NCBI GenBank assembly: GCA_012523095.1
Contig: JAAYJE010000038.1
Coordinates: forward strand, 40,244-104,243
Direction: 5' to 3'
Origin: Actinomycetota bacterium
Lineage (GTDB): Bacteria; Actinomycetota; Thermoleophilia; RBG-16-64-13
DNA: 64,000 nucleotides
The position numbers were made by a program, and so were the translations under genes. Below are positions 1-39,177 of this stretch, piece after piece (position 1 is the first letter of the stretch; every line of letters starts with the position of its first letter). The notes under the pieces are model-generated. The model ran no database searches, was not told where the DNA came from, and saw nothing but the letters and a program-made list of their open reading frames with translations.

Positions 1-491
1 TGGACTATCGCCTGGATCTCAGGGACCGTGAGCGGCCGGATCATGTCTCGGTGGAAGTCGGCGGGAGTGGAGATGTTCACCGCGGACGCTCCTATGGGCG
101 GTCCCTCGTACGTAGCCGGATGGTTGTCGAACAGTGGGTTCTGCCAGGGACCGTCATGCTCCATCTGCAGGAATGTCGGGCACCCGTGGCTGTGGATCAT
201 GTCGACCAGGATCTTGATGCCGGGGATGTACTTATCGTCATCCATACGGTAGCGATAGTGCCAACGGCACCCCTGAGGGAAGTCCACCGTGGGAGCTTCA
301 ACCGAGATGATCCCCACCCCTCCGCGGGCCAGGGCATCGTAGAAGCCCATGGTGTTCTCGTTCATCGAGTCGTACTCGGTATCAAAGAACGTATGCATGC
401 CCGCGGCCGACTTGTAGAGACGATTGCGCGTCTTCACCTTACCGATCTGCCCTGGCTCGAGCAGCTTCGCGTACCTGCCTGGGTCGCTCAT
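1..491 (-). CDS. NADH:flavin oxidoreductase, Old Yellow Enzyme family; N-terminal part only, C-terminus beyond window start
   Basis: Minus-strand ATG at 489-491 preceded by GGAGGG. Manual translation MSDPGRYAKLLEPGQIGKVKTRNRLYKSAAGMHTFFDTEYDSMNENTMGFYDALARGGVGIISVE... matches the OYE TIM-barrel N-terminus. The frame runs off position 1, so it is absent from the ORF track. Confidence 0.6.
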   Translation of the reverse strand, partial: MSDPGRYAKLLEPGQIGKVKTRNRLYKSAAGMHTFFDTEYDSMNENTMGFYDALARGGVGIISVEAPTVDFPQGCRWHYRYRMDDDKYIPGIKILVDMIHSHGCPTFLQMEHDGPWQNPLFDNHPATYEGPPIGASAVNISTPADFHRDMIRPLTVPEIQAIV

Positions 492-574
492 ATGATCCGG
501 CCCTCCGTTCTTTCTGCTTTCGCGTGCCACTTCAGCGGCGCCGGCCTCCCGGCGTCATTTTTCCGTCCGGACCA

Positions 575-1516
575 TCAGACCGGCCCGAATGCTCCAATCT
601 CACTCAGATAGTCGAGCATCTTCAGGTACAGCTCATCGCGTTTCTTGAGGATCTCCACCTCGCTCCTGCCTTGATAATCGTAGATGCCACGCCCGCTCTT
701 GGCGCCGCAGTCCCCGCGTTCCACCCGCTCCTCCACGAACGAGTAGACCTTGCCCACGTTCTTCTGATAGGCCAGCAGCATGTCGAGGCCTTGGAAATCG
801 AAGGTCTGCATGACCCCGACGATCGGAAGCCGCACGCCCAGCGACGTCTTCACGGCCGTGTCGATCTCACCCGGCTCCACCAGACCTTCCTGGACCATGT
901 CCATGGCCGTCTCGCCAATGGCCCGCTGGATGCGGTTGACGATGAAGCCCGGGCCGAACTTCTTCATAGGCACCGGGCTCTTGCCGCAGACCTTCATGAG
1001 GGCCACGGTGAATTCCATGGTCTCGGGCGAGGTCCGCGGTCCCGGCACGACTTCGACCAGTGGGATGATGTGCGCCGGCGTGAAGAAGTGCGCGCACACG
1101 CCTCGAGGCTGCAATGCGTCCGGCAATAACTCGAAGATGTTGAGACTCGACGTGTTGCTGGCGATCACGGTCCGTTCAGGGCAGACGGCGGAGAGCTCAG
1201 CGTACAGTTCCCTCTTGGCGTCCTTGTTCTCGGCTATGGTCTCAAGGACGAAATCCGCATCCTTGGCGACATCCTTGACGTTCTGACTTGTCGTTATGCG
1301 GGCGATGGCCTCGTCTGCCACGGTTTGGGGGAGCGTGCCGTGTGCGACGAGAGTGGCGGAGTTGGCCCTCACCATCTTCATCGCCTTCTTCAACGTCTCC
1401 GCTTTGCGCGAGTACAGAGCCACCTCATACCCGGCGACGGCGAACATCTGAGCCACACCTGGGCCCATGGTGCCGGCGCCGAACACCGCTATCTTCTTGA
1501 CATCCTCGACTCTCAC
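575..1516 (-). CDS. 3-hydroxyacyl-CoA / 3-hydroxybutyryl-CoA dehydrogenase family protein (HBD-like), GTG start
   Basis: N-terminal Rossmann motif KKIAVFGAGTMGPGVAQ and C-terminal HCDH dimerisation region. AAAGGGG lies upstream of the GTG start. It is a paralog of 26931-27890. Confidence 0.8.
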   Translation of the reverse strand: MRVEDVKKIAVFGAGTMGPGVAQMFAVAGYEVALYSRKAETLKKAMKMVRANSATLVAHGTLPQTVADEAIARITTSQNVKDVAKDADFVLETIAENKDAKRELYAELSAVCPERTVIASNTSSLNIFELLPDALQPRGVCAHFFTPAHIIPLVEVVPGPRTSPETMEFTVALMKVCGKSPVPMKKFGPGFIVNRIQRAIGETAMDMVQEGLVEPGEIDTAVKTSLGVRLPIVGVMQTFDFQGLDMLLAYQKNVGKVYSFVEERVERGDCGAKSGRGIYDYQGRSEVEILKKRDELYLKMLDYLSEIGAFGPV

Positions 1517-1572
1517 CGACAGCCCCTTTCAGACCTCGCTTCTCCAGTCGCTCCCGTCCCGGGCAGCGGCGC

Positions 1573-2352
1573 CTAGGCCGTGCAGCTCCGGCCGCCGTCC
1601 ACATACACGACCTGCCCGGTCATGTAGTCAGAGGCCGCCGAGGCCAGGTAGATGCAGGTGCCCATGAGTTCCTCCGGCTCAGCGACCCGTCCGATGGGGT
1701 GCAGGGCGGTCGCCCCGGCCAGGACCTCGGGCGGCAGCGCGGCCTTCATGCCGGGGGTGAAGATCACCGACGGGCCGATGGCGTTGACGTTGACGCCGTG
1801 CTTGGCCCACTCGTACGCCAGCATGCGGGTGAGATTGCCGACGGCGGCTTTGCTGGCGCAGTAACCGACATTGCCCGCGAGCGGGACGCCGCGGTCGCCG
1901 GCCACCGAGCCGATGTTGATGATCTTGCCTTTCTTCTTCTCGAGCATGACCTTGCCGAATTCGCGACAGCAAAGCATGATGCTCTTCACATTGCTCTCGA
2001 AGAGCGTGTCCCAACTGCCTAAGGTCTGGTTCTCAAAGGGCTCTTTGATGTTCTGCCCCTGCGAGTTCACCAGGATGTCCACCGTGCCCATGGCCGCCAC
2101 GATCTCCCCGACCGCGTTCTTCACACCGGCCTCGTCGGTGGCGTCCATCCGGAAGGCCTTCACCTTCGTGGAGACTTCCGGATCGGCCGCAAGTTCACCG
2201 GCCACCACCTGCAGCTTCCCCAGATCGCGGCTGGCGAGAGCCACGTCCGCCCCTTGCCTGGCCAGCCCGAGCGCCAAGGCCTTTCCGATTCCTCCGCCTC
2301 CGCCGACGACCACTGCCACCTTGCCGTCGAGCCTGAAAAGGTCTCCCATCAT
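1573..2352 (-). CDS. SDR family oxidoreductase
   Basis: GKVAVVVGGGGGIGKA glycine-rich motif and YCASKAAV catalytic YxxxK. Start moved to the MMGDLFRL ATG at 2352; the track ORF extends to 2415 and would abut the upstream gene stop. Confidence 0.75.
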   Translation of the reverse strand: MMGDLFRLDGKVAVVVGGGGGIGKALALGLARQGADVALASRDLGKLQVVAGELAADPEVSTKVKAFRMDATDEAGVKNAVGEIVAAMGTVDILVNSQGQNIKEPFENQTLGSWDTLFESNVKSIMLCCREFGKVMLEKKKGKIINIGSVAGDRGVPLAGNVGYCASKAAVGNLTRMLAYEWAKHGVNVNAIGPSVIFTPGMKAALPPEVLAGATALHPIGRVAEPEELMGTCIYLASAASDYMTGQVVYVDGGRSCTA

Positions 2353-2416
2353 CGCCTCGTTTCGTCTTGCTCTGACATTCTCAGCTCCGTGCGCGGCTCG
2401 TTCCATCGTAGCCATC

Positions 2417-3661
2417 TCACCTGTAGGGCAACCAGCACTCCATCAACTCGTCGATGGGCCACAGGCTGAGCCGCTCGTAGCCGTCCTTGGTCACTAGGAT
2501 GTTCTCCTCCAGCCGCACACCGAACTTACCGCCCTTCTTGCCCGCGTAGGTCTCGACGGCCAGGCACATCCCTTCCCTGAAGGTCTGTTCGGGCACCCCG
2601 GCTACCTGGTTCATACGGTTGAAGAACGGCCGGTCGTGCAGAGTCAGACCCAGGCCGTGGCCGATGGCATAGGGGCCCACCTCAGCCCAGGTGTCGTGCC
2701 CCCAGTACTGGGGAGAGTCGGGCCACTTGTCGAGGAGCTGCCAGTCGGTCGAGCCGTCCTTGATGGTGCTCATGCCGTCATACAACATGGCCCGGCACTC
2801 CTCGTAGACGTCCTTCTGCTCTTGACTGGCCTTGCCCACGGAGAACGTACGGTAGACACACGACTTGTAGCCTTGGTAAGAGGCGCCGTCCACATCGATG
2901 TAGACCAAGTCGCCCACCTGCAGAGGCTTATCCGTGAACGACCACCCATAGGGGTTGGTATTGTGACCGGAACAGCAGACCAGGTCTTCGGTGTGGTCGT
3001 CCCCTTCCTCGTAGAGGGTCTTGATACCGATGGCGACCAGATCGCACTCCCGGATTCCCGGGCGGATGGCGTCCACGATCGCGGCAAAGGCCTTCTCGGA
3101 GTGTGCGCAGGTGATGCGCATCAATTCGATCTCATCCACCGTCTTGATCATGCGGGCAAGGTCCATGAAGGGTTTGGCGTGGACGACCTCCACGCCCCGC
3201 TTCTTGAAAGCCTCTGCGTAGATGTAGGAGAGCGTGGTGCCGTCGATGCCCAGCGGCTCCTTCTCCACGCCGTACTCCACCATGAAGCCGTAGATCTGGT
3301 CCACGACGTTCTGAACGACCTTGTCGTCGGGCGTGAAGGCCGCGATCTTCGCGATGCCGGCCGGAGCATGGATACGGCCCCCCATCCAGGGCATCCGCTG
3401 GATCAAGCCCTCTTGGTCGTTGCCTCCGATGATGTGCGGATCGCCGTTACGCGCACAGAAGCAGAACTGGGCCTCCAGAGGACGGTTGGGAGTGGTGATG
3501 TAGTAGCCCGTCATGTACCGGACATTGGCTTCGTCCCAGGTGACGATGGCTCCGAGCCCCGCCTTGTTGATCTCGGCCTTCGCACGCTGCAGGCGCTCCG
3601 CCCGTAGACGAGGATAGTTGACCCGTTCTTCGTAGTCGACCGCGTATTTTCCGAGTACCAT
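2417..3661 (-). CDS. M24 family metallohydrolase (creatinase/prolidase fold)
   Basis: Creatinase N-domain plus pita-bread catalytic domain with metal-ligand Asp/His/Glu pattern (..[18 protein letters not shown].., ..LHDRPFFNR..). ATG at 3661 follows GGAGGAG; the track start at 3664 is GTG. Confidence 0.75.
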
Positions 3662-3714
3662 CACTCCTCCTACCGTGTCGTCTATTCCGTCGTCTTAGGA
3701 CCCTGCGCGCGCTC

Positions 3715-4893
3715 CTACAGTCTTTCGAAGATCGCGGCGCACCCGATGCCGCCCGCCGCGCACATGCTGACCAATCCGTACCGGTTCTTGCGGCGTTTCA
3801 TCTCGTGCAACAGTGTCGCGGTGAGCTTGGCTCCGGTCGCACCCAGAGGATGGCCCAGAGCGATGGCTCCACCGTTCACGTTCAAGATCTCGCGGTCGAG
3901 GCCCAGTTCGCGCATGCAGTAGACAGACTGGCTGGCGAAGGCCTCGTTGAGCTCTATGAGCTCGATCTGGTCCATGGTGAGACCTGCGAGCTTCAGCACC
4001 TTCGGGATGGCGAACACCGGGCCGATGCCCATCACGGCCGGGTCGCAGCCGGCGGCGGCGAACGCTACGAAACGGGCCAGGGGCTCCAGCCCAAGCGACT
4101 CCGCCTTCTCCGCGCTCATCACGACCACGGCAGCGGCGCCGTCGCTGGTCTGCGACGAGTTGCCCGCCGTGACCGTGCCGTCCTTCTTGAAGACCGGCCT
4201 CAACTTGGAGAGGACTTCGACCGTGCTGCCCGGCCGCGGACCTTCGTCGGTGGTCGTTGTGGTGATCTTCTCGACCACCGTGCCGTCAGGGCCGGGGAGC
4301 CTGCGCTTGATCTCCACCGGCACGATCTCGTCGTCGAACGTGCCGTTCTCGATAGCCGCCAGAGCGCGGCGCTGGCTTTCGGCCGCGAACACATCCTGCT
4401 CTTCACGAGTGACGCTGAAGCGTTCGGCCACGTTCTCGGCCGTGATGCCCATACCGGCGTATACACCGGGGTTGACCTTCTGCATGTCCCAGCTGCTGAT
4501 CTGTTTGTTGCCGCCACCGGGCACCCGGGACATGCTCTCGATGCCCGCTGCAAGCACCACCTCGACCTGGCCCGACATGACGGCCTGGGCCGCATAAACG
4601 ACGGACTGCAGCCCGGAGGCGCAGAACCGAGTGAGGGTGACGCCCGGCACCGTGTCGGGGATGCCGGCGAGCAGGGCGTAGTTCCTCGCGCAGTTCAGCC
4701 CCTGTTCAGCCTCGGGGAAGGCGCAGCCCATGATGACGTCGTCTATCTCCGCCGGGTCGAGCCCGGGCGCGCGCTCCAGCGCCGCGCGGATGGACGTGAC
4801 CGAGAGGTGCTCCGGCTGGATGGTCCTGAACATCCCCCTCGGGGCTTTCCCGACCGGCGTACGTACCGCCGATACTACGACTGCTTCTATCAT
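3715..4893 (-). CDS. acetyl-CoA C-acetyltransferase (thiolase II)
   Basis: [13 protein letters not shown]-terminus, active-site Cys region [12 protein letters not shown] and C-terminal [21 protein letters not shown]. Confidence 0.85.
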
Positions 4894-4918: not shown

Positions 4919-7297
4919 CTAGTTCCGGAGGGGCTTCCCGGTCCTCAGCATGTGTTGCATCCGCTCGATGCTCTTGGCCGTGCGGCACACCTCTAGGAAG
5001 GCCTTGCGCTCGAGGTCGAGGAGATACTGCTCGTCGACCTCTGCGTTGATCTCCACCTCGCCGCCCGACAGGACCCGGCCCACCATCATCGACAGATAGT
5101 GGTCGTGGTCGGAGATAAAGTCGCCGCTGCGGGCGTTATCGAGGATCCAACGGAAGTTCCCCATGCCGTCCACACCCATCACCTGCACCGTCACCGGCGC
5201 CGGCGTCTGCCAGCCCGACTCGAGCATCCCTAGGGCCACCTGCTTCGCCGCATGGATGAGGCCGTCGCGGTTCATAGTCACGCCGTCCCCGGGGCGAAGG
5301 TAACCGAGGTCGAACGCCTCCCAGGCCGAGGAGCTGACCTTAGCCATAGTGATGGCCTGGAATGAGCGCTGCATGATGAACCAGGCCCAGTTGACACCCT
5401 GAGCGGGGGCCGTGGTGCGGAACACCGCCTCCTTCATCCCTCCGGCCGCCGGCACAAGCCCTACGCCGGTCTCCACCAGCCCCATGTTGACGTCGGCGTG
5501 GGCCTGCACACGATGGCAATGCAGGCAGACCTCAAGGCCGCCGCCCAGTACCCTGCCGAACGGCGCCGCCACTATGGGGATAGGCGCGTACTTCATGGCC
5601 ATGCTCGTGCGTTGGGCCGTGCGGACCAGGTGCTCGATGCCGTCCCAGTCCTCAGCGGCGATCTTGTCGAGCATCAGCCTTATGTCTGCTCCGCCCGAGA
5701 AGTGTGCGCCTTGGTTACCGATGACCAGAGCGTCATAGGCGTCTCCGGCGTTCTCGATGGCCTTCAGAATGAAGAGCTGCACCCCTTCTCCCACGGTGTT
5801 GGCCTTGGTGTGGAACTCGATGCAGGCCACCCGGTCGCCCAGATCGACGAGACCGGCATGCTCGTTCTCCTCGAGCGTCCTGCCGTTCGCCTTGAGATCG
5901 GCGAGGTTGATCACACGCTTCCGCGCTGCAAGCGGCTTGTGTCCCTCCTGACCCGGTCCCCACACTTCGAGAGCGCCCGCCTCCTTCTTGTAGAACGAGG
6001 GAGCCTCGGTGGCCGCCAGCTGTAGCACCCATTCGGGAACGGCCCGGCCCTCCGCCTTCATCCGCTCGACGGTCTCCTTGACTCCGAGGGCGTCCCACAG
6101 CTCGAAGGGGCCCAGGTCCCAGGCATAGCCCCAACGCATGGACCGGTCGATCTGAGCGATGTCGGAGCAGATCTCGGGGATACGGTTGGCAGCGTAAACG
6201 AAGGTGGCGGCTAGAAGGTCCCACCCAAAACGAGCGGCCGCGTCGTCGAACGAGATGAACTTCCGCACGCGCGCTACCGGGTCGGAGATCTTGTTCGCCT
6301 CCGTGAGGCTCTCGTACTGCGGGTCCTGCCAGGGTCGGTATTCCAGCGTATTGGGATCGATGCACAGAGTGCGCTTCTCTCTGAAGAAGCTCCCGCCGGT
6401 CTTCTCGCCCAGATAGCCGCGGTCGACCATGTCCAGGATCCACTGAGGAAGCTTCCACTGCTCGCGCATCTCGTCGCCCACGGCGGTCTCGTAGTGGCTC
6501 TCGACCGCGTAGGCCAGCACATCGGTGCCGGCCAGGTTAGACGTGCCATAGGTGGCGGTCACCGAGCGGGCCAGGGCCCGGCCGCTGGCCGCGTCGACGT
6601 CCTCGATGGTGAGGCCGTACTTCTCCTGTTGATTGATCGCGTAAACGGTCGAGAAGATGCCGATGCGGTTGGCGACGAAGTTCGGGGTGTCCTCGCTCAG
6701 CACCACTCCCTTTCCCAGTCGAAGCTCGGCAAACTCCTGCAGACCTTTCACAACGGCCTTATCGGTATGACGGCCCGGGATCACTTCCAGGAGGTACATG
6801 AAGCGGGGCGGGAAGAAGAAGTGACTGCCCAGAAAACGCCTCTTCACGTCGTCGGGGAGGACCGATGCCATCGCGTTGACCGAAAGTCCTGAAGAGTTCG
6901 TCGACACGATAGTCTTAGGGCCGATGTACCCGGCCACCCGGCTCAGAAGGCTCTGTTTCACGTCGAGCCTCTCCACCACAGCTTCCACTACCCAATCCAC
7001 ATCCGCAAGCTTCGCCAGGTCGTCATCGAGGTTCCCCGGAGTGAGCAGATGGGCGCGGCTTGGGTGTGCGAAGGCGGCGGGGCGCCCCTTGAGAGCTGTG
7101 GAGATCGCAGCCTTGGCCAGACGGTTCCGCACGCCCGGGTCATCCAACCCCAGACCGAGCTTCTTCTCGTCGTCGTTCAGCTCCGTCGGAGCCAGATCGA
7201 GGAGCAGTGTGGGTATGCCGGCGTTCGCCAGATGGGCCGCAACCGCGGTACCCATGCGGCCCGCTCCGAGAACAGCCGCCCTTCGGATCACTAACAT
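4919..7297 (-). CDS. FadN-type bifunctional 3-hydroxyacyl-CoA dehydrogenase (N-terminal) / enoyl-CoA hydratase (C-terminal)
   Basis: N-terminal NAD-binding AVLGAGRMGTAVAAHLA followed by HCDH C-domains. C-terminal crotonase fold (..GGGLEVCLHCHRVQAHADVNMGLVETGVGLVPAAGG..). 792 aa with the same domain order as Bacillus FadN. GGAGG RBS overlaps the TetR stop. Confidence 0.85.
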   Translation of the reverse strand: MLVIRRAAVLGAGRMGTAVAAHLANAGIPTLLLDLAPTELNDDEKKLGLGLDDPGVRNRLAKAAISTALKGRPAAFAHPSRAHLLTPGNLDDDLAKLADVDWVVEAVVERLDVKQSLLSRVAGYIGPKTIVSTNSSGLSVNAMASVLPDDVKRRFLGSHFFFPPRFMYLLEVIPGRHTDKAVVKGLQEFAELRLGKGVVLSEDTPNFVANRIGIFSTVYAINQQEKYGLTIEDVDAASGRALARSVTATYGTSNLAGTDVLAYAVESHYETAVGDEMREQWKLPQWILDMVDRGYLGEKTGGSFFREKRTLCIDPNTLEYRPWQDPQYESLTEANKISDPVARVRKFISFDDAAARFGWDLLAATFVYAANRIPEICSDIAQIDRSMRWGYAWDLGPFELWDALGVKETVERMKAEGRAVPEWVLQLAATEAPSFYKKEAGALEVWGPGQEGHKPLAARKRVINLADLKANGRTLEENEHAGLVDLGDRVACIEFHTKANTVGEGVQLFILKAIENAGDAYDALVIGNQGAHFSGGADIRLMLDKIAAEDWDGIEHLVRTAQRTSMAMKYAPIPIVAAPFGRVLGGGLEVCLHCHRVQAHADVNMGLVETGVGLVPAAGGMKEAVFRTTAPAQGVNWAWFIMQRSFQAITMAKVSSSAWEAFDLGYLRPGDGVTMNRDGLIHAAKQVALGMLESGWQTPAPVTVQVMGVDGMGNFRWILDNARSGDFISDHDHYLSMMVGRVLSGGEVEINAEVDEQYLLDLERKAFLEVCRTAKSIERMQHMLRTGKPLRN

Positions 7298-7300: not shown

Positions 7301-7992
7301 CTAGTCCTCCCCAGAATTATCTCCGCGATCCAGACCAAGACCCCGGAAGATGAAACCGATTAGAAACTCAACCGTCGACTCGACATCTTCGGGGCCGGAC
7401 AGCTTAAGGTTCCAGCCCCTAAGAACAAGGAATAGACACACGTACGAGACCAGATTCGCAGCCAACTCAGATTCCCGCCCCCGCAGCTGGTGTCCGGGGA
7501 TCAGCGAAAGAAGGTGCCGATAGAAGCCCACGACGTTCCGGTCGTCCAACTCGAGCACCTTTCGGAGGTGCTCCTTGTCGAGGTACTTGCTCTCGGTGAA
7601 TATGAACTGGTAGAGCTGCCGATTCGCGGAAAGATGCTTCATGGTGATCCGCAGCCCATGCTCCAACTTGGCCACAGGGTCGGTGATCTCCTCGATACCG
7701 GCGTCGACCAAACTCTGATTCCACAACTCCTGACTGTGACGGTGCATGAGGTACAGGATGTCGTCTTTTGAGGAGATGTAGTGGTACAGCTGACCCATGG
7801 ACATCCCGCACGCGGAGGCGATATCGCGGATGGAGGTCTTGCCGAAGCCCTTCTCGAAGAGCACGCTGCTCGCTCCTTCCACGATGATGCGCTGCTTCAT
7901 CTCGGTCAACTCGCGGTCGGTCGAGGCCGCCTGCAGAGATCCCTCCGCAACCCTCTGCAGCATCTCATCAAGCTGGTGTTTGGTGCTCGTCA
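7301..7992 (-). CDS. TetR/AcrR family transcriptional regulator
   Basis: HTH at ..KTSIRDIASACGMSMGQLYHYISSKDDIL.. The track ORF extends to 8287 but would overlap the SnoaL-like gene. The ATG at 7992 (MTSTKHQ...) gives a typical ~230 aa TetR. Confidence 0.75.
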
Positions 7993-8093
7993 TGAAGGTC
8001 GCGCACTCCTTGCGTCCGATATAGTGTTGTCCGCGGCCGGCCTCTCCCGGCCTGATGAACCGATCTGCCGGAAGAGCGGATGACCGCCTTCGA

Positions 8094-8142
8094 TAGAGCG
8101 CTCGCTCTAACCATTCTGGCAGGTATTCCGGCCCGGTGTCAA
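8094..8142 (-). promoter_or_regulatory. Predicted sigma70-type promoter (TTGACA-N17-CAGAAT on minus strand) with a 16-bp palindromic operator TAGAGCG-N2-CGCTCTA just downstream; copy 1
   Basis: Plus-strand tgtcaa 8137-8142 (-35), attctg 8113-8118 (-10), palindrome tagagcgctcgctcta 8094-8109. Near-identical architecture to copy 2 at 10740-10786. Confidence 0.45.
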
Positions 8143-32432: not shown

Positions 32433-32738
32433 CTACTTCCTACCGTACTCCGTTGCGAAGAACATATCGTGGAACAGGATAGGCTTCGAGGGGTCGTTGA
32501 TCTTCTTGAAGTTGAGCGGGCAATGGTAAAGACCGGCAGGCACCGAGACGAACGTGGCTTGGGTGAACGTGAACTTCTCCATATGGTCTGCATCTTCCCC
32601 CAGCCAAAGCTCCACTTCGCCGCCCAGATCCATCATATTGGTGATGTCCCCCCCCACCAGCAGGATGAACTGATCGAAGTCGTGGGCGTGGCTTTCGGAG
32701 ATCATCTCAAAGGGCTCCGAGATGGGCCACCAGGTCAT
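32433..32738 (-). CDS. small cupin-fold protein of unknown function
   Basis: ~100 aa with His/Glu-rich beta-barrel-like pattern (..SHAHDFDQFILLVGGD...GEVELWLGED...VPAGLYHCP..). ATG at 32738 preferred over the TTG track start at 32786. Weak call. Confidence 0.4.
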   Translation of the reverse strand: MTWWPISEPFEMISESHAHDFDQFILLVGGDITNMMDLGGEVELWLGEDADHMEKFTFTQATFVSVPAGLYHCPLNFKKINDPSKPILFHDMFFATEYGRK

Positions 32739-32968
32739 ACGCACGTTCTTGTCCTCGGGGCCCCATCCATCGACACCGCTTCGCAAGGCCAGTCGAGGGC
32801 CGCTTACCTCAGGATGAGGGTTCTCACCGGCCTATCACCAGGCCGAAACGCTGTCAATAACCTGTGCGTCAGTGGGATTCCCCCGTCTGCCGACGCGTCG
32901 CAGCGCCGTGCGATGAGCCCTCGTCATCGCAAACGTCGATGCCGGCGTGATCGGGCCGGATGCTCACG

Positions 32969-34429
32969 CTACGCTTCTGTCTGGCGGCGTGCCTCATCAG
33001 GTGTGACGGGTGGTTTCGACGCCGTGCTGCGGTTGCACCTCTCGGCGGTCCATCCCGTCTCGCGGAGAAAAGCCGCCAGCACCGTCCCCACGAGAAACAC
33101 GCCGGCGGCCAGCAGGTAGGAGTACTTGAGCGAGCCGAAAGCATCGGCCATCAGACCGGCCGCGTACGGTCCGAGAACTTGCCCCACCCCTATGAAGATC
33201 GTGACGAAACCCAGAGAGGCGGAGGCTAGAACGGGACCGAACTGGTCGCCGCAGCCGGCTCCGACAATGCCGGGCACCGCGACTGCGGTGAGCCCACAAA
33301 GAACGGCCGAGATCATAAGTCCCGGCGTGGTCGGACACCAGGCGAAGAGGGCCGCCGAGACGGCCTGGAGCAGGCAACTGATGCCGATGGCCCGCCCTCG
33401 TCCGATGCGGTCGGAGATGCTGCCCCAGATGAAGCCGGCGGCGATGCTCATCACCCCCAGGGCAAGGAAGAACCTGCCCGCGGACTGAGCACTGAGGCCC
33501 AAGTCGACGGTAAGACGCCTTTGGAAGAACGTGAAGTAGATCATGTAGGCAAAGCCGAACATGAAGTAAACGAAGCCCATATGCCAGGCGTAGCGGGAGC
33601 GGTAGACTTTCCGCAGGTCAAACGGGATCGGCGCAGTCCGCGGCGCGGGCGCGGGCGCCGGCGACCAGCTCGCCAGCGTAGCCGCCAGGGCCACCTCGTT
33701 GCCCTTACCGGCCTCGCCTTTGGCCGTCTCGGCCTCCCAGATCGATCCCTTCATGACAGGAGTATGCGCCGAGCGGTCCGGACGATTACGCTGGATGATG
33801 AACGTCAGAACCCCCACGGCTAGAGTCAAGGCAGCGAAGAAGTACCAGGCAAGACGCCACCCCTCGGCTCCGCCGCCCTCTATGATGCGCGGAACGACAG
33901 GCCCCGTGATCACCAAGGCAAGTGACGAACCTGATGAGACCACACCCGAGGCCATGCCCCGCCGGCGGATATCGAACCATGCCGACATCAGCGCCACCGA
34001 GGGCACCAGCACCATGCCGCTGCCCACCCCGGTAAGGAGACGGGCCGCGGAAGCCGCCACCACGCCATTGGAGAGCCCTGTGGCCGCCATCCCCAGGGCC
34101 GCCACCACCGAACCCACCCCTACAACTATGCGGGGGCCGAACCTGGAAGCCAGGATACCCCCGACGGCCGCCATCAGTACGTACCCGCCCAGGTTCCAAG
34201 AAGCGAGCGAACCGGCGGCGGCGCTGCTGATACCCAGATCGTCCTGCATGGCCGGCAGGATGGCGCTGTAGCCGAAGCGACCGAAACCCAGTGCGCCGAA
34301 CACGGCCAAGAAACCCATGGCCAGCACCACCCATCGATACGAAGGGCGTTGGGTGAGCCGCCGCGATCCGGCGCGGGGGCCGCCGGCCGGAGGAGTCACC
34401 TTCGGAGACGAGTCAGCCGCTGTCAACAC
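32969..34429 (-). CDS. MFS transporter (oxalate/formate-antiporter-like subfamily)
   Basis: Twelve predicted helices and an MFS signature region. GTG start 3 nt after the IorB stop; the start is uncertain. Confidence 0.7.
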   Translation of the reverse strand: MLTAADSSPKVTPPAGGPRAGSRRLTQRPSYRWVVLAMGFLAVFGALGFGRFGYSAILPAMQDDLGISSAAAGSLASWNLGGYVLMAAVGGILASRFGPRIVVGVGSVVAALGMAATGLSNGVVAASAARLLTGVGSGMVLVPSVALMSAWFDIRRRGMASGVVSSGSSLALVITGPVVPRIIEGGGAEGWRLAWYFFAALTLAVGVLTFIIQRNRPDRSAHTPVMKGSIWEAETAKGEAGKGNEVALAATLASWSPAPAPAPRTAPIPFDLRKVYRSRYAWHMGFVYFMFGFAYMIYFTFFQRRLTVDLGLSAQSAGRFFLALGVMSIAAGFIWGSISDRIGRGRAIGISCLLQAVSAALFAWCPTTPGLMISAVLCGLTAVAVPGIVGAGCGDQFGPVLASASLGFVTIFIGVGQVLGPYAAGLMADAFGSLKYSYLLAAGVFLVGTVLAAFLRETGWTAERCNRSTASKPPVTPDEARRQTEA

Positions 34430-34432: not shown

Positions 34433-35047
34433 CTACCGGGTAGAGCAATCCGTGTCGGATGTGGAGGCACCGGCGGCGCCCAGCCGGAAGGCTTCGAGGT
34501 TCACTTCGACGGTCTTGGGCGGCACCGCCTTACGGATCACCTCTTCCCAGGTTCCGAGCGCAAAGGGAAGAGTGGACGAGATGGCGCCCAGCATTGCTAC
34601 GTTGGCCGCCTTCACGGTACCCGCCTTGGCGGCCAACTCATTGGCGTTCACACACTTGGTGTTGGGCCAAGCCGCCCTGATGAGGCCGTCCACGTCGTCG
34701 GGATAGGAGGCGAGTCCGGCCGAGACCGGGCTGGGGTTGATGCGCAGGGCGTTATAGACGAGCACACCTCCCGGCTTCAGCCAATGTACATAGCGTAATC
34801 CTTCCAGAGCCTCGAAGGCCATGAGGAGATCAGCCGTACCCTCAGGCACCAACGGCGACCAGACTTTGTCGCCGAAGCGGAAGTGGCTGGTGACGCTACC
34901 ACCGCGCTGGGCCATGCCGTGCACCTCGCTCTGCTTCACATCGTAGCCCTCGCTCATGGCGACGTGGCTCAACACGAAACTGGCGAGGACGACTCCTTGA
35001 CCCCCAACGCCGGTGAGTAGTACGTTCATGGTCGGGCGGGCGGTCAT
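34433..35047 (-). CDS. iorB: indolepyruvate/2-oxoacid:ferredoxin oxidoreductase subunit beta (IorB-type)
   Basis: NVLLTGVGGQGVVLAS...SEVHGMAQRGGSV...GTADLLMAFE pattern. ATGA overlap with the IorA stop. Confidence 0.8.
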   Translation of the reverse strand: MTARPTMNVLLTGVGGQGVVLASFVLSHVAMSEGYDVKQSEVHGMAQRGGSVTSHFRFGDKVWSPLVPEGTADLLMAFEALEGLRYVHWLKPGGVLVYNALRINPSPVSAGLASYPDDVDGLIRAAWPNTKCVNANELAAKAGTVKAANVAMLGAISSTLPFALGTWEEVIRKAVPPKTVEVNLEAFRLGAAGASTSDTDCSTR

Positions 35048-36891
35048 CAGGATCCCTCCCCTTCAGCCGACACTGGTCGGACGATCGCATCTTGTCTGCA
35101 CAGTTGCGAACAGATCCCACAGCCGGCACATTCGGTCGCGCTGATCTCCACCTTGAGATCGTCGTCGGCGTCGGTGTAGAGGTTGAGCGCCCCACACCCC
35201 GCCTGGAGACAACGTTTGCACCCTATGCAGAGCTCGGAAACGACCTGATAGACAGGCTTGCGGATCTTGAATTGTAGAACGCACGGGGCTTTGGCGATCA
35301 CCACGGAGGCCTCGTCGGCGGCGAGTTCCTCACGGAGCACCCGCTCCGTCTCAGCCATGTCATAAGGGTCGATGGTCGTCACCCGCTTGATGCCGAGCGC
35401 AGCACACAAAGCGGGAATGTCCACCACCGCTGAGGGTTCGCCCAGCAGTGTCTTGCCCGTCCCTGGGTTCTCCTGACCTCCGGTCATGGCGGTCGTGCTG
35501 TTGTCGGCGATGATGCTGAGCGTCTTGCCGCCGTTGTAGGCCACATCCATGAGAGAGGTGATGCCCGAGTGGAAGAAGGTGCTATCGCCGATGACGCCGA
35601 CGATCTTCTTGCGGAGGTCGGGCTTGGCGTCCTCAGCCGGCGGCTCCAACACCTTGGCCATGCCGTGCGCCATGCTGATGCTGGCTCCCATGCAGGTGCT
35701 GCAATGCACCGCGTTGTACGGGGGCAACGCGCCCATGGTGTAGCACCCGATGTCGCCGCTCACGTAGACCCGCAGCTTCTTGAGCACTACAAACAGGCCT
35801 CGATGCGAACATCCGGGGCAGAATGTGGGAGGCCGGCCCGGCAGATCCGTCGCCTGCGGGCCCAGGTCGCCGAGAAGATCGGGGTTGACGCCCGGCAATC
35901 CTGCGCGGGCAAGCGACTGCGCAACCAGTCGAGCGTTCAGTTCGCCCTCCAGACTGTTCAGCTCCTTGCCTCCGTCGACCTTGATACCCATGAGCCTGAT
36001 GGCTTCTTCGAGGAAGGGGTCTAGCTCTTCGACCACATACAACTTATCCACCTTGGCCCGGAAGTCAGCGATAAGCTTTGCCGGCAGGGGGAAGATCATG
36101 CCTAGTTTGAGGTAGCTGGCGTCCGGAAGAGCCTCGCGCACGTAGCCGTAGATGGCTCCTGAAGTGATGATGCCCACACGGGTATCACCCATTTCCACCC
36201 GATTGAACGGGCAGGTCTCGGCGTACTCGGCCATATCCAGGACCCTCTGCTCGACCACCTGATGCCGTACGATGGCGTTTTGCGGCATCATGAGGTACTT
36301 GGTCCAGTCGCGGCGTACCGCGGCGACGGGCGCCGTCTCGACGCGTTCACCCATCGTCACCAGACTCTTCGAATGCGACGTCCGGGTGGTGGTGCGGAAC
36401 AGCACCGGGGTATCGAATCGCTCGGAAAGATCGTAGGCGGCAACCATGAACTCCTTGGCTTCGCCGCTGTCGGAAGGCTCCAACACGGGGACGCGCGCGA
36501 ACTTGGCATAGTTGCGATTATCCTGCTCATCCTGAGAACTGTGCATCCCCGGGTCGTCAGCGGACACCACGACCAGACCCGCCTCCACCCCCACGTAGGA
36601 GGATGAGAAGAAGGGGTCGGCGGCTACGTTCAATCCCACGTGTTTCATACACACGAGCGCCCGTCCACCGGCCATGGACGCTCCGACGCCCACCTCCATC
36701 GCCACCTTCTCGTTGGGCGACCACTCGCAGTAGACGCCCTCGTAGTCCACCATGGACTCGAGTATCTCTGTGCTAGGGGTACCTGGATAGGCCGCCGCCA
36801 GCCGGACACCGGCTTCCCATGCGCCTCGAGCGATCGCCTCGTTGCCCGAGAGGATCTCCACCGCTTCTGCCGTCTGAGTCTTACTCGTCAT
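35047..36891 (-). CDS. iorA: indolepyruvate/2-oxoacid:ferredoxin oxidoreductase subunit alpha (TPP-binding, two C-terminal [4Fe-4S] motifs)
   Basis: TPP-binding GDIGCYT / GDSTFFHSG regions and C-terminal CIGCKRCLQAGC...CAGCGICSQLC. ATG at 36891 follows GGAGGAGAT. The track start at 36945 would overlap the upstream gene by 43 nt. Confidence 0.8.
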   Translation of the reverse strand: MTSKTQTAEAVEILSGNEAIARGAWEAGVRLAAAYPGTPSTEILESMVDYEGVYCEWSPNEKVAMEVGVGASMAGGRALVCMKHVGLNVAADPFFSSSYVGVEAGLVVVSADDPGMHSSQDEQDNRNYAKFARVPVLEPSDSGEAKEFMVAAYDLSERFDTPVLFRTTTRTSHSKSLVTMGERVETAPVAAVRRDWTKYLMMPQNAIVRHQVVEQRVLDMAEYAETCPFNRVEMGDTRVGIITSGAIYGYVREALPDASYLKLGMIFPLPAKLIADFRAKVDKLYVVEELDPFLEEAIRLMGIKVDGGKELNSLEGELNARLVAQSLARAGLPGVNPDLLGDLGPQATDLPGRPPTFCPGCSHRGLFVVLKKLRVYVSGDIGCYTMGALPPYNAVHCSTCMGASISMAHGMAKVLEPPAEDAKPDLRKKIVGVIGDSTFFHSGITSLMDVAYNGGKTLSIIADNSTTAMTGGQENPGTGKTLLGEPSAVVDIPALCAALGIKRVTTIDPYDMAETERVLREELAADEASVVIAKAPCVLQFKIRKPVYQVVSELCIGCKRCLQAGCGALNLYTDADDDLKVEISATECAGCGICSQLCRQDAIVRPVSAEGEGS

Positions 36892-36902
36892 ATCTCCTCC
36901 GC

Positions 36903-39080
36903 CTATGAAAGGGGGTTGCGGTCGCACCGCCGAGTCGCGTACCACTCCATTCTATCGAGTGCCAGCGCCGCCGACCGGGGCGATGTGAGCACGATGGGGT
37001 GGTAGCGTCTGCCTCGATCGAACACCGAACCACGGATGGGGGTGTCGGGTACGTTGATTATAGGCTTGTCGGTCGTCTCCATCAGCTCGGCGATCAGGTC
37101 GATGAACTCCGTTTCCCAAGGACTGAGCCCCGCATATTCGCCGTCGTCGCAGGTGGGTCGCACGTTACTGCCGCTCGTGGGGATCCCCAATGTGGACAGC
37201 ACGACGACGGCGTCTACAGCGTCACACTCTGCGACAAGCCGGAGCACCCGCGGACCGACATCTCCGCCGGCCGCGGTCACCATGTCGAGCGGATTCTGTC
37301 TGCTCCAGTAGGGAGGCAGGATCTCGTCAAGAGCCTCGTACAACTCGGGCGGGAATTCGGCCAGCTGCAGCCCATGACGAGCCGCCTCGTCGGCCGCCAT
37401 CACGCCGGCACCACCACCGTTGGTGACTATCGCCACCCGGCGTCCTTTGGGCAGCGGGTTGTACGCAAGACAGGCGCCCAACTCTATTACGTCCTGAGAG
37501 CTGGTACAGGTCACTATCCCGGCCTGCCTTGCCGCCGCCTCCCACACCGCGGCGGAACCGGCCATGGCTCCGGTGTGTGACGCCGCAGCTCTGCTGCCGA
37601 ACTCGGTCAGACCGGCCCGGAGCACAACGACCGGCTTGACGGCGGTGGTGCGTCGCGCCGCTTCGAGGAAGCGCCGTCCATCATCGACGCCTTCAACATA
37701 CATCATGATGCACGTGGTGTTCGGATCGTCCCTCAGGTAGTCGAGGGCCTCGGTGACTCCTATCTGGGCTTCGTTGCCGACGCTCAGGAACTTGTCGATG
37801 CCTATGTTGCGCCGTTGGCAGAAGTTCGTGGTCTGGACCCCTATGTTGCCCGATTGCGATACAAAGCTGAGTGTCCCTTTGAGCGGGTGAAGAACAACGA
37901 ACCCGACGGCATGCAGGCTCACCTCGTTGGAGACCATCCCCATGCAGTTAGGTCCCATCAAGGTGACGCCGCCCTCGGACGCGATCCGGGCTATCTCCTG
38001 CTCGGCCTCCACGCCGGAAGCGCCGGTTTCGGAGAAACCGGCGGCGATGGCGATCGCGGCCTTGATACCCTTGCGCCCGCACTGTTCAAGCATCGCGGCC
38101 ACCTGGTGGCCGCCGACGGCGAGCAGAGCCAGATCGGGGGCCTCAGGCAGGTCTTCGATGCTCGTATAGGCCTTCAGACCGAAGAACTCGCCCCCTCTTG
38201 GGTTCACCGGATATACAGTCCCCGTGTAGCCGCCGTCGAGGATGTTCTTGAGGGCGGACCCTCCCCATTTGGTTATGTCTCCGGAAGCTCCGACAACCGC
38301 CATGGATCGCGGCGCCACCAACGGCTTGAGATCAGGGACAAACGCGCTCCGCCGCGGTTCCTTGGTCTGTTCACGAGCAAGGATGATCAGAGCGTCGGCG
38401 GCCACCGGCCGGCCGCCCTCCACCAAGACCGGATTAATATCAATCTCGGCGATCTCGGGATGGTCGAGCGCTATCTGCCCTACAGCCTGAAGGATCTTCC
38501 CGAGCTCAGCTCGGTCCACGGGTGGATAGCCACGGAAAACGCCTAACAGCCGCTTAGCTTTGATCAGATCCGGTAGTTCGGCCGCGTCCTGATCGTCGAG
38601 GGGAGCAAGGCCGAGCACCACGTCGCCAAGCGCCTCCGTGAGAACCCCGCCCAGTCCGAAAGCCACCACCGGCCCGAAGACGGAATCCCGCTTCATCCCC
38701 ACCATGAACTCTCGGTTACCGGCCACCATCTGCTCCACCAGCACCGCTTCGAGTGCGTCTCCGGCCCGCTCCTCCAACAAACGGTACGTCTCGGCCACCG
38801 CTTCCGCGCCTTCGACACCCAACACCACCAGCCCCGCTTCGGTCTTGTGATGGATCTCGCCGCCGACGCCCTTCATCACCACTTTGCCCCCGATGCGCAT
38901 AGCTGCCGCCACCGCCTCGGCTTCGCCCCTTACGAGAGCGCCCGCCGGCACCGGGATACCGTATGTCGCGAACACCTGCTTCGATTGTCGCTCGTCGAGG
39001 GCCGTGGCCCCGGATGCCAGAGCCGCCGATATCAGTTGCTGTACGGCTGCGAAGCCGAGCGCTTGTGATCGTGTGTCCAT
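36903..39080 (-). CDS. ADP-forming acyl-CoA synthetase (acetate--CoA ligase, NDP-forming); fused ATP-grasp (N-terminal) and CoA-binding/ligase-CoA (C-terminal) domains
   Basis: ATP-grasp block SKQVFATYGIPVPAG...GGKVVMKGVGGEIHHKTEAGLVVLGV; CoA-binding MAVVGASGDITKWGGSALKNILDGGYTGTVYPVNP; ..MGPNCMGM.. ATG at 39080 with AAAGGGG RBS. The track start at 39146 is not ATG. Confidence 0.8.
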   Translation of the reverse strand: MDTRSQALGFAAVQQLISAALASGATALDERQSKQVFATYGIPVPAGALVRGEAEAVAAAMRIGGKVVMKGVGGEIHHKTEAGLVVLGVEGAEAVAETYRLLEERAGDALEAVLVEQMVAGNREFMVGMKRDSVFGPVVAFGLGGVLTEALGDVVLGLAPLDDQDAAELPDLIKAKRLLGVFRGYPPVDRAELGKILQAVGQIALDHPEIAEIDINPVLVEGGRPVAADALIILAREQTKEPRRSAFVPDLKPLVAPRSMAVVGASGDITKWGGSALKNILDGGYTGTVYPVNPRGGEFFGLKAYTSIEDLPEAPDLALLAVGGHQVAAMLEQCGRKGIKAAIAIAAGFSETGASGVEAEQEIARIASEGGVTLMGPNCMGMVSNEVSLHAVGFVVLHPLKGTLSFVSQSGNIGVQTTNFCQRRNIGIDKFLSVGNEAQIGVTEALDYLRDDPNTTCIMMYVEGVDDGRRFLEAARRTTAVKPVVVLRAGLTEFGSRAAASHTGAMAGSAAVWEAAARQAGIVTCTSSQDVIELGACLAYNPLPKGRRVAIVTNGGGAGVMAADEAARHGLQLAEFPPELYEALDEILPPYWSRQNPLDMVTAAGGDVGPRVLRLVAECDAVDAVVVLSTLGIPTSGSNVRPTCDDGEYAGLSPWETEFIDLIAELMETTDKPIINVPDTPIRGSVFDRGRRYHPIVLTSPRSAALALDRMEWYATRRCDRNPLS

Positions 39081-39177
39081 GCAGTTACTCACACCCCTTT
39101 GGCTCCTCGCGGATCCCTCGTCGAGCCGGCCCTTTCGCACGCCCACGGCGATGCTAGGTTGTTTGAATGTCCATATG

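Follow-up and report, generated by a model that had tools for sequence, protein, structure and literature searches.

We analysed a 64,000-nucleotide stretch of DNA from an Actinomycetota bacterium (Thermoleophilia; RBG-16-64-13; contig JAAYJE010000038.1, positions 40,244 to 104,243 of the forward strand), which we call the window, and in particular a ~40-kb catabolic island at its left end. The island most likely serves the O2-free degradation of plant-derived trihydroxybenzenes by an uncultured actinobacterium of anaerobic digesters. We think it somewhat probable that its core (~11.6-40 kb) encodes a route without O2 from pyrogallol/phloroglucinol to acetyl-CoA and acetate, plus a second hydroxybenzene-converting module built on two molybdoenzymes. 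The long open reading frames (ORFs) in 1-40 kb were scanned against Pfam and NCBIfam, and the window proteins were mapped by tblastn onto a comparative set of 80 species-representative genome loci anchored on the alpha subunit AthL1 and 63 metagenome loci anchored on the molybdoenzyme Mo3 (loci are numbered with the prefix L). The window has a G+C content of ~62% with no sharp compositional break, and its DNA recurs in anaerobic-digester metagenomes.

The original prediction, made from the letters of the window, had named two transhydroxylase-family alpha/beta pairs, a third three-subunit Mo enzyme (28243-32282), two thiolases with a FadN-like protein, an ADP-forming acyl-CoA synthetase (ACS) and an MFS transporter, four regulators (TetR, two IclR and GntR), a chemoreceptor, and two operator-like motifs each present twice; domain scans, structure matches and motif counts bore all of this out. 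The claimed lack of ring-cleavage oxygenases also held, since no oxygenase domain was found in any scanned ORF. Beyond that list we found IorA, IorB, a SnoaL_4 protein, a Zn-dependent alcohol dehydrogenase (Zn-ADH) family protein, a B3_4-domain protein and a 117-aa ORF. Regulatory RNAs such as a Moco riboswitch were sought with Rfam; the scan returned just two tRNAs.

Molybdoenzymes and a shared cis-element

The first transhydroxylase-type pair consists of AthL1 (13853-16402, minus strand), a Mo-bisPGD alpha subunit, and BthL1 (13010-13849, minus), a beta subunit with Fe-S dicluster domains and a C-terminal CarboxypepD_reg-like domain; thiolase 2 (11663-12895, minus) is the last gene of this unit. 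The second pair is formed by the divergent alpha subunit AthL2 (17489-20140, plus) and BthL2 (20116-20955, plus). Both alpha subunits matched Pfam AhtL-like_1st (PF21423) at 80.8 and 35.8 bits, respectively, and both had 4v4c_A, from the Pelobacter acidigallici transhydroxylase, as their best PDB match (868 bits for AthL1 and 403 bits for AthL2); for AthL1 the next solved protein scored 257 bits. Each beta subunit contained Fer4_11 and CarboxypepD_reg, and a profile of the two matched 4v4c_B over its full length (243 bits, residues 5-273). No twin-arginine (TAT) signal was present at the N-terminus of AthL1 or AthL2.

AthL1 was 50% identical to P. acidigallici AthL and retained His144, Asp174, the Mo ligand Ser175, Trp176, Tyr404, Phe468 and Tyr560. 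AthL2 (36% identity) retained His144, Asp174, Ser175 (aligned and conserved in both proteins) and Trp176, and the segments bearing Tyr404 and Tyr560 were deleted. The roles of His144, Arg153, Asp174, Tyr404 and Tyr560 are those reportedly assigned by Messerschmidt et al. in 2004. AthL1-BthL1 was widespread, occurring in Actinomycetota, Desulfobacterota, SAR324, Bacillota, Acidobacteriota and others, and the 92 AthL1-type genes of the fetched loci were at least 64% identical to that of the window across phyla; AthL2-type proteins shared 32-36% identity with P. acidigallici AthL. By these comparisons AthL1 is the island's transhydroxylase-like enzyme; the characterised enzyme lies outside the AthL1 orthogroup, and to call AthL1 its orthologue would go too far. 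A third transhydroxylase subfamily, not in the window, was found elsewhere (L101 4305-6875, L104 9460-12024, L107 12431-15004, L128 5176-7737 and L043 ~6357), where it usually sits directly after Mo3.

The third molybdoenzyme is encoded by FeS3 (28243-29037, plus), a four-cluster-type ferredoxin subunit without signal peptide, NrfD3 (29056-30012, plus), a quinone-interacting membrane anchor of the NrfD family in which 7 or more transmembrane (TM) helices are predicted, and Mo3 (30042-32282, plus), the catalytic subunit, which is of the Cys-ligated Mo/W-bisPGD type and has a 4Fe-4S motif at its N-terminus. The best solved relative of Mo3 was acetylene hydratase (2e7z_A, 285 bits), followed by FdhF (174 bits) and, lower, thiosulfate/polysulfide reductase 2vpw (156 bits). 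The metal-ligand Cys136 and the 4Fe-4S cysteines were invariant (115-117 homologues), as was, in 115 homologues, His14 at the position of Asp13 of acetylene hydratase. The Mo3 ORF opens at the first start codon after a stop, with the 4Fe-4S motif from residue 10, so that no TAT signal is possible. Because Mo3 and FeS3 carry no signal and NrfD3 has its membrane helices, the complex is predicted to be membrane-anchored and to face the cytoplasm. Downstream of FeS-NrfD-Mo3 in L092 (14026-18311) we noted genes for a UbiA prenyltransferase, two radical-SAM proteins and a UbiE-type methyltransferase, which look like menaquinone biosynthesis and would fit a quinone-linked role of the complex.

Two functions were considered for Mo3 and rejected. 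Acetylene hydratase has Cys141 as metal ligand and a catalytic Asp13 beside the cluster cysteine, and is a soluble monomer; Mo3 keeps the Cys ligand, has an invariant His in place of Asp13, and is co-encoded with FeS and NrfD subunits in a three-subunit context. A respiratory reductase of the Psr/Ttr/Arr type was discarded on account of the missing TAT signal, the nearest relationship to acetylene hydratase, and the conserved synteny with AthL2.

This synteny was tight. FeS and NrfD genes preceded Mo3 in every locus with the upstream region present, always as a triplet, and AthL2-BthL2 lay at most 600 bp from the triplet in 15 of the 22 loci informative on both sides. The pair stood either upstream (L099, L100, L102-L105, L107-L109) or downstream (L090, L110, L112-L119, L127) of it, and the same adjacency of the AthL2/BthL2-Mo3 module was seen in L090, L054 and L058. 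Four of the 7 loci without it were high-identity Actinomycetota-type loci (L095, L098, L123, L132), two of which (L098 and L123) are arranged like the window, FeS3 being preceded by an SDR3-MBL-IclR2-SDR4-BKACE-HBD2 block. The most compact arrangement was that of L107: BthL1 and AthL1 on one strand; IclR, AthL2, BthL2, FeS3, NrfD3, Mo3 and a third AthL on the other; then GntR, divergent from ACS, IorA and IorB. Judged by gene order, the Mo3 enzyme, which had been described as an extra one, is a conserved partner of the second transhydroxylase paralogue.

A 27-mer, motif 1 (ACGATATCTCGATATTATTGAGTAATA), links the two modules further. It is AT-rich, contains a ATATCGAGATAT-type palindrome, and occurs twice, each time in the same orientation toward the gene that follows: at 16453-16479 (plus), 51 nt before the AthL1 start, and at 28107-28133 (minus), 110 nt before that of FeS3. 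Two matches arose in 0 of 100 shuffles. HBD2-BKACE-SDR4 and FeS3 diverge from the region that holds the second copy, which points to FeS3 and directly follows a TTGAAA-17-TACGAT promoter-like box. Fifteen related Actinomycetota loci keep the element at the same place in front of AthL1, and L097, L098 and L123 keep it in front of FeS3. Since it precedes both units, it ties AthL1-BthL1-thiolase to FeS3-NrfD3-Mo3. Two regulators of the IclR family, IclR1 (16502-17362, plus) and IclR2 (24322-25155, minus), are 55% identical to one another, and motif 1 is plausibly an IclR operator.

The nature of Mo3 allows another explanation, namely that Mo3-FeS3-NrfD3 is a catechol/pyrogallol-type reductive dehydroxylase that acts as a respiratory or electron-sink enzyme, independently of ring degradation, for instance by converting pyrogallol or gallate to resorcinol or 3,5-dihydroxybenzoate. 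Catechol dehydroxylases have been delimited as enzymes closer to acetylene hydratase than to other characterised Mo enzymes (PMC7028382), and Mo3 falls within that limit. A 4Fe-4S partner and a membrane anchor, as in Dadh, Cadh and Hcdh, an adjacent MFS transporter, as with the Gordonibacter enzymes, and the His at the Asp13 position, which sets Mo3 apart from acetylene hydratase, point the same way. However, the membrane-bound, three-subunit Eggerthella dehydroxylases carry TAT signals and face outward (PMC7028382), whereas Mo3 and FeS3 have no signal, and the synteny with AthL2/BthL2 and the operator common with AthL1 favour a role inside the catabolic route. We therefore regard an independent dehydroxylase as unlikely, and prefer Mo3 as part of the hydroxybenzene-converting module.

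Candidate genes for a phloroglucinol route and for ring opening

The published steps beyond phloroglucinol start with PGR, an NADPH-dependent short-chain reductase (SDR) with a TR(S/N) motif, and include TfD, an HBD-family enzyme without the CoA-binding Lys56 and Asn221 (PMC10470551). The window encodes candidates for both. One unit, on the minus strand, comprises HBD2 (26931-27890), a candidate TfD-like 3-hydroxy-acid dehydrogenase, BKACE (26068-26922), the sole copy in the window and a candidate triacetate acetoacetate-lyase (TAL), and SDR4 (25202-25990), a PGR-like reductase with an NAD-type 'ADIN' motif. Further left lie HBD1 (575-1516, minus), a 3-hydroxyacyl-CoA-dehydrogenase family protein and likewise a TfD-like candidate (45% identity to HBD2), and SDR1 (1573-2415, minus), a second PGR-like reductase (258 aa in public gene calls, the true start probably lying inside the ORF). 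Two complete sets of the published enzymes had been predicted; we found only one BKACE and no cyclase-family dihydrophloroglucinol cyclohydrolase (DPGC), the hydrolases present being M24/creatinase-like and MBL-fold proteins.

The evidence that AthL1 belongs with such genes comes from other phyla. In 34 AthL1 loci the sequence extended 9 kb or more to either side; a PGR-like SDR occurred in 16 of these, an AthL2-type paralogue in 18, and a BKACE in 5. AthL1-BthL1, BKACE and HBD were found together in L053, L056, L070 and L084, along with a PGR-like SDR in L056, L070 and L084 (not L053), a thiolase in L053, L056 and L084 (not L070), and a cyclase gene in L070 and L084, so that these four loci taken together cover the published phloroglucinol enzyme set. 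BKACE-HBD-SDR units (55-59% identity) lie inside AthL1 operons of Desulfobacterota, Acidobacteriota and Pseudomonadota. This synteny is the strongest argument that the product of AthL1 would enter the phloroglucinol route, and it supports a TAL role for the window's BKACE (PF05853, 308 bits) as a candidate.

SDR1 and SDR4 are 42% identical to each other. With the SDRs located after AthL1-BthL1 in other phyla they share 39-54% identity and a GG(A/G)GGIG motif (GGGGGIG in SDR1). The syntenic SDRs carry (A/S)SR(N/S); SDR1, with its NADP-type 'ASRD', shares the Ser-Arg, resembling the TR(S/N) NADPH motif, and SDR4 and its actinobacterial orthologues have an Asp at the Ser-Arg position, of the NAD type. 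The PGR-like assignment of both proteins is a candidate one that rests on context. A PDB search for a verified phloroglucinol reductase gave generic SDR matches only for SDR1 and SDR4; 5g4k, presumably a Clostridium PGR, scored ~115 bits, and no literature was found on this code.

For the ring-opening step, the published DPGC is a Mn-dependent dihydrophloroglucinol cyclohydrolase of the cyclase family (PF04199; PMC10470551). No cyclase-family domain occurred in any scanned ORF of the window, and the fetched flanks of the Actinomycetota-type loci, L098 and L123 among them, gave no cyclase match either. In SAR116, too, according to an independent preprint (doi 10.64898/2026.07.17.739263), pgthAB and PGR occur but DPGC does not, so a non-cyclase hydrolase may fill a general gap in the pathway. 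As to cyclases elsewhere, we noted a tandem pair of cyclase-family proteins (267 and 260 aa), 70-90% identical across Desulfobacterota and Bacillota, that accompanies AthL1 loci (L086 3169-4810; L087 1241-2855; also L021, L029, L030, L040, L048, L069, L077, L078, L115 and L119), and in other loci a separate single cyclase directly after BthL1 (~42-44% identity to CycB, 35% in L070).

The favoured candidate for a dihydrophloroglucinol hydrolase in the window is the M24/creatinase-like metallohydrolase (2417-3664, minus). Its neighbours are SDR1 and thiolase 1 (3715-4893, minus), with HBD1 next to SDR1, and its family is conserved at 60-92% identity across phyla. Asp257/259, His336, Glu371 and Glu386 were near-invariant and Cys269 was invariant, at what we take to be the place of the canonical second Asp metal ligand of M24 (D, D, H, E, E); the metal site thus looks non-canonical, and all NCBIfam scores of the protein were far below cut-offs. 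Homologues with 64% identity head cassettes of the form TetR, M24-(DUF362)-HBD-BKACE-CoA-transferase (L156 8937-14919; L157 9076-16207), which by analogy would share the logic of DPGC-TfD-TAL-CtfAB. These cassettes include two CoA-transferase subunits and belong to unrelated genomes. An M24 homologue near AthL1 in L046 (Rhodospirillaceae), at 34% identity and in another gene context, was not counted as support.

The second candidate, the MBL-fold metallohydrolase (23244-24170, minus), carries an HFHPDH motif, and no solved structure is close to it. Its gene is co-transcribed with SDR3 (22418-23263, minus; 271 aa in public gene calls), with which it travels in close relatives only; the M24 gene is retained in the related Thermoleophilia island and the MBL gene is not. 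As a speculation, the MBL protein could equally be a lactonase, e.g. for triacetic acid lactone. In L160 (Thermoleophilia) the position of the MBL gene, between IclR2 and SDR3, is occupied by an aldehyde:ferredoxin oxidoreductase (AFOR) gene and an AlaDH/PNT-like gene (2294-4165 and 1174-2283).

Flanking units and neighbouring genes

To the right of Mo3, on the minus strand, lie an MFS transporter (32969-34429), IorB (34433-35047), the beta subunit of an indolepyruvate:ferredoxin oxidoreductase, its TPP- and Fe-S-containing alpha subunit IorA (35047-36945), and a fused ADP-forming ACS (36903-39146), followed on the plus strand by a GntR/FCD regulator (39262-40026). IorA and IorB passed their equivalog models (TIGR03336, 682.1 against a cut-off of 650.9, and NF005322, 253.8 against 237). 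GntR-ACS-IorAB abuts Mo3 or AthL1 in L027, L087, L107, L109, L130, L131, L136 and L137. It is therefore a conserved neighbour, in which IorAB could serve acetyl-CoA assimilation or arylpyruvate metabolism. The palindrome ATAACTCGTTAT (39178-39189), in the divergent GntR / ACS-IorAB intergenic region, fits the general pattern of GntR-family operators. Just after Mo3, a conserved 117-aa ORF without Pfam match (32433-32786, minus) was found at 93% protein identity, always in this position, in L093, L123 and L152, with weaker homologues (34-38%) in L104, L135, L138 and L139; it probably represents a genuine but unannotated small gene that closes the ACS-IorAB-MFS unit.

A rival reading is an oxidative pathway of the hydroxyhydroquinone type, as an anaerobe's analogue of RehLS / BtdLS / BqdLMS of Aromatoleum anaerobium. 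AthL2/BthL2, and perhaps AthL1, would then be water-dependent hydroxylases like resorcinol hydroxylase, FeS3-NrfD3-Mo3 would pass electrons to menaquinone or oxidise a triol with it, and IorAB would cleave a hydroxyquinone or 2-oxo compound to an acyl-CoA, from which the ADP-forming synthetase would make ATP. The gene order AthL2-BthL2-FeS3-NrfD3-Mo3, GntR, ACS-IorA-IorB (L107, L109, L027) does mirror the known three-step logic, in which a transhydroxylase-like enzyme hydroxylates, a membrane-bound dehydrogenase acts next, and a TPP-dependent dehydrogenase cleaves the ring (PMC10084136). The RhL/PgtL family includes resorcinol hydroxylase as well as transhydroxylase (PMC10100899), and AthL2 is without the Tyr404 and Tyr560 segments of the transhydroxylase pocket. 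However, BtdLS is DoxX-type and BqdLMS is PDH-like, and neither has homologues here, so the resemblance is one of analogy only; IorAB passes cut-offs for an arylpyruvate oxidoreductase; no terminal oxidant system was seen in the window; and the PGR-like SDR, HBD and BKACE that travel with AthL1 favour a reductive phloroglucinol route. An oxidative route thus seems improbable to us, and the reductive route remains the one that we prefer.

The left 10.7 kb of the window form a separately regulated unit, plausibly controlled by a TetR-family regulator (7301-7990, minus; 230 aa in public gene calls, the mechanical ORF extending to 8287) and linked to the core in at least two genera. Besides thiolase 1, M24, SDR1 and HBD1, its TetR-headed operon includes a FadN-like 3-hydroxyacyl-CoA dehydrogenase / enoyl-CoA hydratase (4919-7297, minus) and the 5' part of a gene for an OYE-like FMN/FAD reductase (1-491, minus; 702 aa in full according to the gene tables of L088 and L089). 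This gene is cut by the left edge of the window at position 1, and the operon continues for at least 10 kb further left, with the rest of the OYE-like gene, SnoaL_4 and HpaB/AbfD-like genes, a second ADP-forming ACS, and a Liv-type ABC transporter. A second operon comprises SDR2 (9910-10683, minus), a Zn-ADH family protein (8858-9943, minus) and a SnoaL_4 (NTF2-fold) protein (8181-8687, minus).

Both operons are preceded by motif 2, the palindrome GATAGAGCGCTCGCTCTA, at 8092-8109 (with a TTGACA-like box nearby) and at 10737-10754, and like motif 1 this duplication is far beyond chance. A third copy with one mismatch lies outside the window, at L088 10520-10537, before the HpaB/AbfD-like gene; the TetR regulon hence includes three promoters or more and reaches 10 kb or further past the window. 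Motif 2 is plausibly a TetR operator. The presence of OYE-like, SnoaL and HpaB/AbfD-like genes suggests that this unit has another upstream substrate. In most relatives the TetR regulon is not beside AthL1. In a Thermoleophilia metagenome-assembled genome (MAG; 81-83% protein identity) it lies directly beside GntR-ACS-IorAB-MFS-Mo3-NrfD-FeS-HBD2-BKACE-SDR4-IclR2, in changed order, and this survival of the linkage through rearrangement suggests that regulon and core share a role, perhaps on an upstream polyphenol. The original prediction, which had assigned the whole island to one O2-free trihydroxybenzene route, thus holds as the best reading of the core (~11.6-40 kb), the left 10.7 kb being separately regulated; the notion of a single large island agrees with the linkage kept in the Thermoleophilia MAG, though the island consists of at least two regulons.

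It is also conceivable that HBD, BKACE, M24 and the left TetR regulon serve an unrelated beta-keto-acid/CoA-ester pathway that is merely adjacent to the molybdoenzymes, such as a lysine- or carnitine-type cleavage, or the degradation of an alicyclic or aromatic acid or of a flavonoid via OYE-type reductases. The TetR regulon has its own operator and is not conserved next to AthL1 in most relatives, and its OYE-like, SnoaL, HpaB/AbfD-like, FadN, ACS and ABC transporter genes have no role in the published phloroglucinol route. BKACE scored best on the lysine-pathway Kce model, and in L158 an M24 homologue has genes for KDD, lysine aminomutase and BKACE in its vicinity. However, the 64-kb window was devoid of lysine-pathway genes (no KDD, aminomutase or Kal), and lysine fermentation, which the original prediction had named as a refuting case, was rejected as a function of BKACE and HBD except within this alternative. 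The BKACE-HBD-SDR units inside AthL1 operons of three other phyla, the second motif 1 copy between HBD2-BKACE-SDR4 and FeS3, oriented to the latter, and the continued, rearranged linkage of the TetR regulon in the Thermoleophilia MAG also speak against an unrelated pathway, which we consider very unlikely. We thus keep HBD2, BKACE and SDR4 as candidates for the phloroglucinol route.

The remaining genes touch the subject less closely. A B3_4-domain protein (10812-11621, plus) has counterparts of 72-93% identity beside thiolase 2 and BthL1 in Actinomycetota relatives; it consists of the stand-alone domain, which is otherwise known from phenylalanyl-tRNA synthetase beta subunits. Hairpins 3' of BthL2 and of Mo3 were evident by eye and were both missed by a consensus terminator scan; the first is GC-rich and terminator-like, with a T-run (20993-21031), and lies between the convergent genes for BthL2 and a methyl-accepting chemotaxis protein (MCP; 21086-22297, minus). 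The MCP has two TM helices with ~36 residues between them and was found only in contigs of the window's own species. It was considered as a polyphenol sensor and set aside as not part of the conserved system, having no real periplasmic domain and being absent from relatives.

Past the island, a flavodiiron-type protein (41312-42805, minus; ODP/MBL and flavodoxin domains) is consistent with an oxygen-sensitive lifestyle. A plus-strand run at 44062-49156 contains CotH kinase-like, VTC-domain, DUF4956 and Cthe_2159 carbohydrate-binding-domain genes, unrelated to the island. Some 20 kb rightward of the catabolic island, a tRNA-Thr (59529-59601) adjoins a tyrosine integrase (59671-60684; Arm-DNA-binding and Phage_integrase domains), an arrangement that resembles the border of an integrated element. 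A tRNA-Met is encoded at 63135-63207.

Proposed route and comparison with known systems

In the route that we favour for the core, AthL1/BthL1 would transfer a hydroxyl group in a Mo-dependent reaction and so isomerise pyrogallol, or a compound close to it, to phloroglucinol, and a PGR-like SDR (SDR4 with NADH and/or SDR1 with NADPH) would reduce phloroglucinol to dihydrophloroglucinol. The ring would be opened by a metallohydrolase outside the cyclase family (M24 preferably, the MBL-fold protein alternatively), HBD2 or HBD1 would oxidise 3-hydroxy-5-oxohexanoate to triacetate, and the single BKACE would cleave triacetate with acetyl-CoA. The thiolases would complete the conversion to acetyl-CoA, and the ADP-forming ACS would conserve ATP.

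The second module, AthL2/BthL2 with FeS3-NrfD3-Mo3, may channel another hydroxybenzene into the phloroglucinol route or make the co-substrate 1,2,3,5-tetrahydroxybenzene, for whose cellular origin we know of no explanation. AthL2 would perform a water-dependent hydroxylation and Mo3 a reductive dehydroxylation, with electrons exchanged via the Fe-S subunits and the quinone pool; the substrates may be hydroxyhydroquinone, pyrogallol or tetrahydroxybenzene. We propose this couple of reactions because resorcinol hydroxylase belongs to the transhydroxylase family, catechol dehydroxylases are acetylene-hydratase-like, and the synteny and shared operator are tight. A fuller version would combine two parts: a membrane-anchored, cytoplasm-facing, menaquinone-buffered machine of AthL2/BthL2-FeS3-NrfD3-Mo3 that moves hydroxyl groups by coupled redox reactions, turning hydroxyhydroquinone or pyrogallol into phloroglucinol without co-substrate or supplying tetrahydroxybenzene, and an M24 enzyme with its Cys site that replaces the cyclase DPGC. 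We put this joint proposal forward tentatively and consider it rather unlikely.

Several points weigh against the favoured route. We directly observed family memberships, retained catalytic residues, synteny across phyla and shared cis-elements; the steps themselves are drawn from family membership and synteny. AthL1 differs from P. acidigallici AthL by the substitutions R153K and W354E. All 92 AthL1-type proteins of the fetched loci are 46-51% identical to this characterised enzyme and the third subfamily is closer to it, at 57%, so that AthL1 could act on another substrate. Among solved SDRs, none is closer to SDR1 and SDR4 than the gluconate 5-dehydrogenases. The best NCBIfam score of BKACE, on Kce, is 292 bits, below the cut-off of 382, and its score on the 3,5-dioxohexanoate transferase model is 209 bits, the cut-off being 430. 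A tblastn search of the 64-kb window with four cyclase proteins from related loci gave no match at E<=1e-3; the same queries match many non-actinobacterial AthL1 loci. We know of no M24 or MBL enzyme that acts as a C-C hydrolase, the M24 cassettes of L156 and L157 contain no SDR (nor a molybdoenzyme), and in L158 M24-DUF362 keeps the company of the lysine-fermentation genes mentioned above. The activity class of IorAB, indolepyruvate oxidoreductase, has no place in the published phloroglucinol pathway. Finally, many AthL2 loci have no Mo3 within 10 kb, so that the linkage fails in the converse direction.

How tannin- and flavonoid-derived phenols are degraded anaerobically matters for carbon storage in peat and sediment, for digester performance and for gut polyphenol metabolism. 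The enzymes are known from very few organisms: the transhydroxylase from Pelobacter, and those that act after phloroglucinol from Clostridium scatologenes. The present data indicate at least three transhydroxylase subfamilies in uncultured Actinomycetota, Desulfobacterota, SAR324 and Chloroflexi-type lineages, of which the characterised enzyme poorly represents the abundant ones, and one of them is coupled to a membrane-anchored, acetylene-hydratase-like molybdoenzyme. Within the fetched flanks, the ring-opening enzyme of the published type is absent from an entire clade of Actinomycetota. The data also provide clonable candidates for missing biochemistry, namely for where the tetrahydroxybenzene co-substrate comes from, for how hydroxyhydroquinone enters the pathway, and for a C-C hydrolase of another kind.

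The type of pathway is already known, and the view that the island had not been described applies to part of it. Multiple transhydroxylase copies per MAG have been reported in the sediment Chloroflexi RBG-2, RBG-1351 and DEH-C11 (PMC3971608, PMC4959651), with two or three AthL/BthL-like pairs per genome, which the window resembles in its multiple copies, and 'acetylene hydratase-like' genes, IOR and ADP-forming ACS were also listed on scaffolds. These reports are gene lists, in which no AthL2-BthL2-FeS-NrfD-Mo3 unit, ACS-IorAB link or shared operators are described. In the literature searched we found no description of the five-gene unit with two molybdoenzymes, of the operator common with AthL1, of the linkage to ACS-IorAB, or of an M24/MBL replacement of DPGC.

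Compared with individual systems, both pairs in the window follow the heterodimer plan of P. acidigallici AthL/BthL (PDB 4v4c, 4v4d, 4v4e), with an alpha subunit that has neither Fe-S cluster nor TAT signal and a beta subunit with Fe-S clusters and a C-terminal beta-barrel-like domain. Mo3 resembles acetylene hydratase (2e7z) in being a Cys-ligated bis-PGD enzyme with an N-terminal 4Fe-4S cluster. With the catechol dehydroxylases (Dadh, Cadh, Hcdh, Cldh, Dodh; PMC7028382), which we compared via their descriptions rather than their sequences, the Mo3 unit has in common a ferredoxin partner, a membrane anchor and an adjacent MFS transporter; it differs from them in that Mo3 lacks a TAT signal, is predicted to face the cytoplasm and adjoins a transhydroxylase paralogue. 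The gene logic of A. anaerobium RehLS/BtdLS/BqdLMS (PMC10084136), in which a transhydroxylase-family Mo enzyme, a membrane redox module and a TPP enzyme lead to acyl-CoA, is similar to that seen here, but only the first enzyme is homologous, the membrane module being FeS/NrfD/Mo rather than DoxX-type and the TPP enzyme a ferredoxin-dependent IorAB rather than a PDH-like complex. The closest likeness for the steps after phloroglucinol is the C. scatologenes cluster (PMC10470551), whose SDR, HBD, BKACE, thiolase, MFS transporter and local regulator all have counterparts in the window, where HBD2-BKACE-SDR4 form one unit. The window differs from it in having an M24 and/or MBL hydrolase in place of a cyclase-family DPGC, a FadN-like enzyme and an ADP-forming synthetase instead of a CoA transferase and Pta/Ack, and an NAD-type motif in SDR4 rather than TR(S/N), and in that its cluster is joined with three molybdoenzymes.

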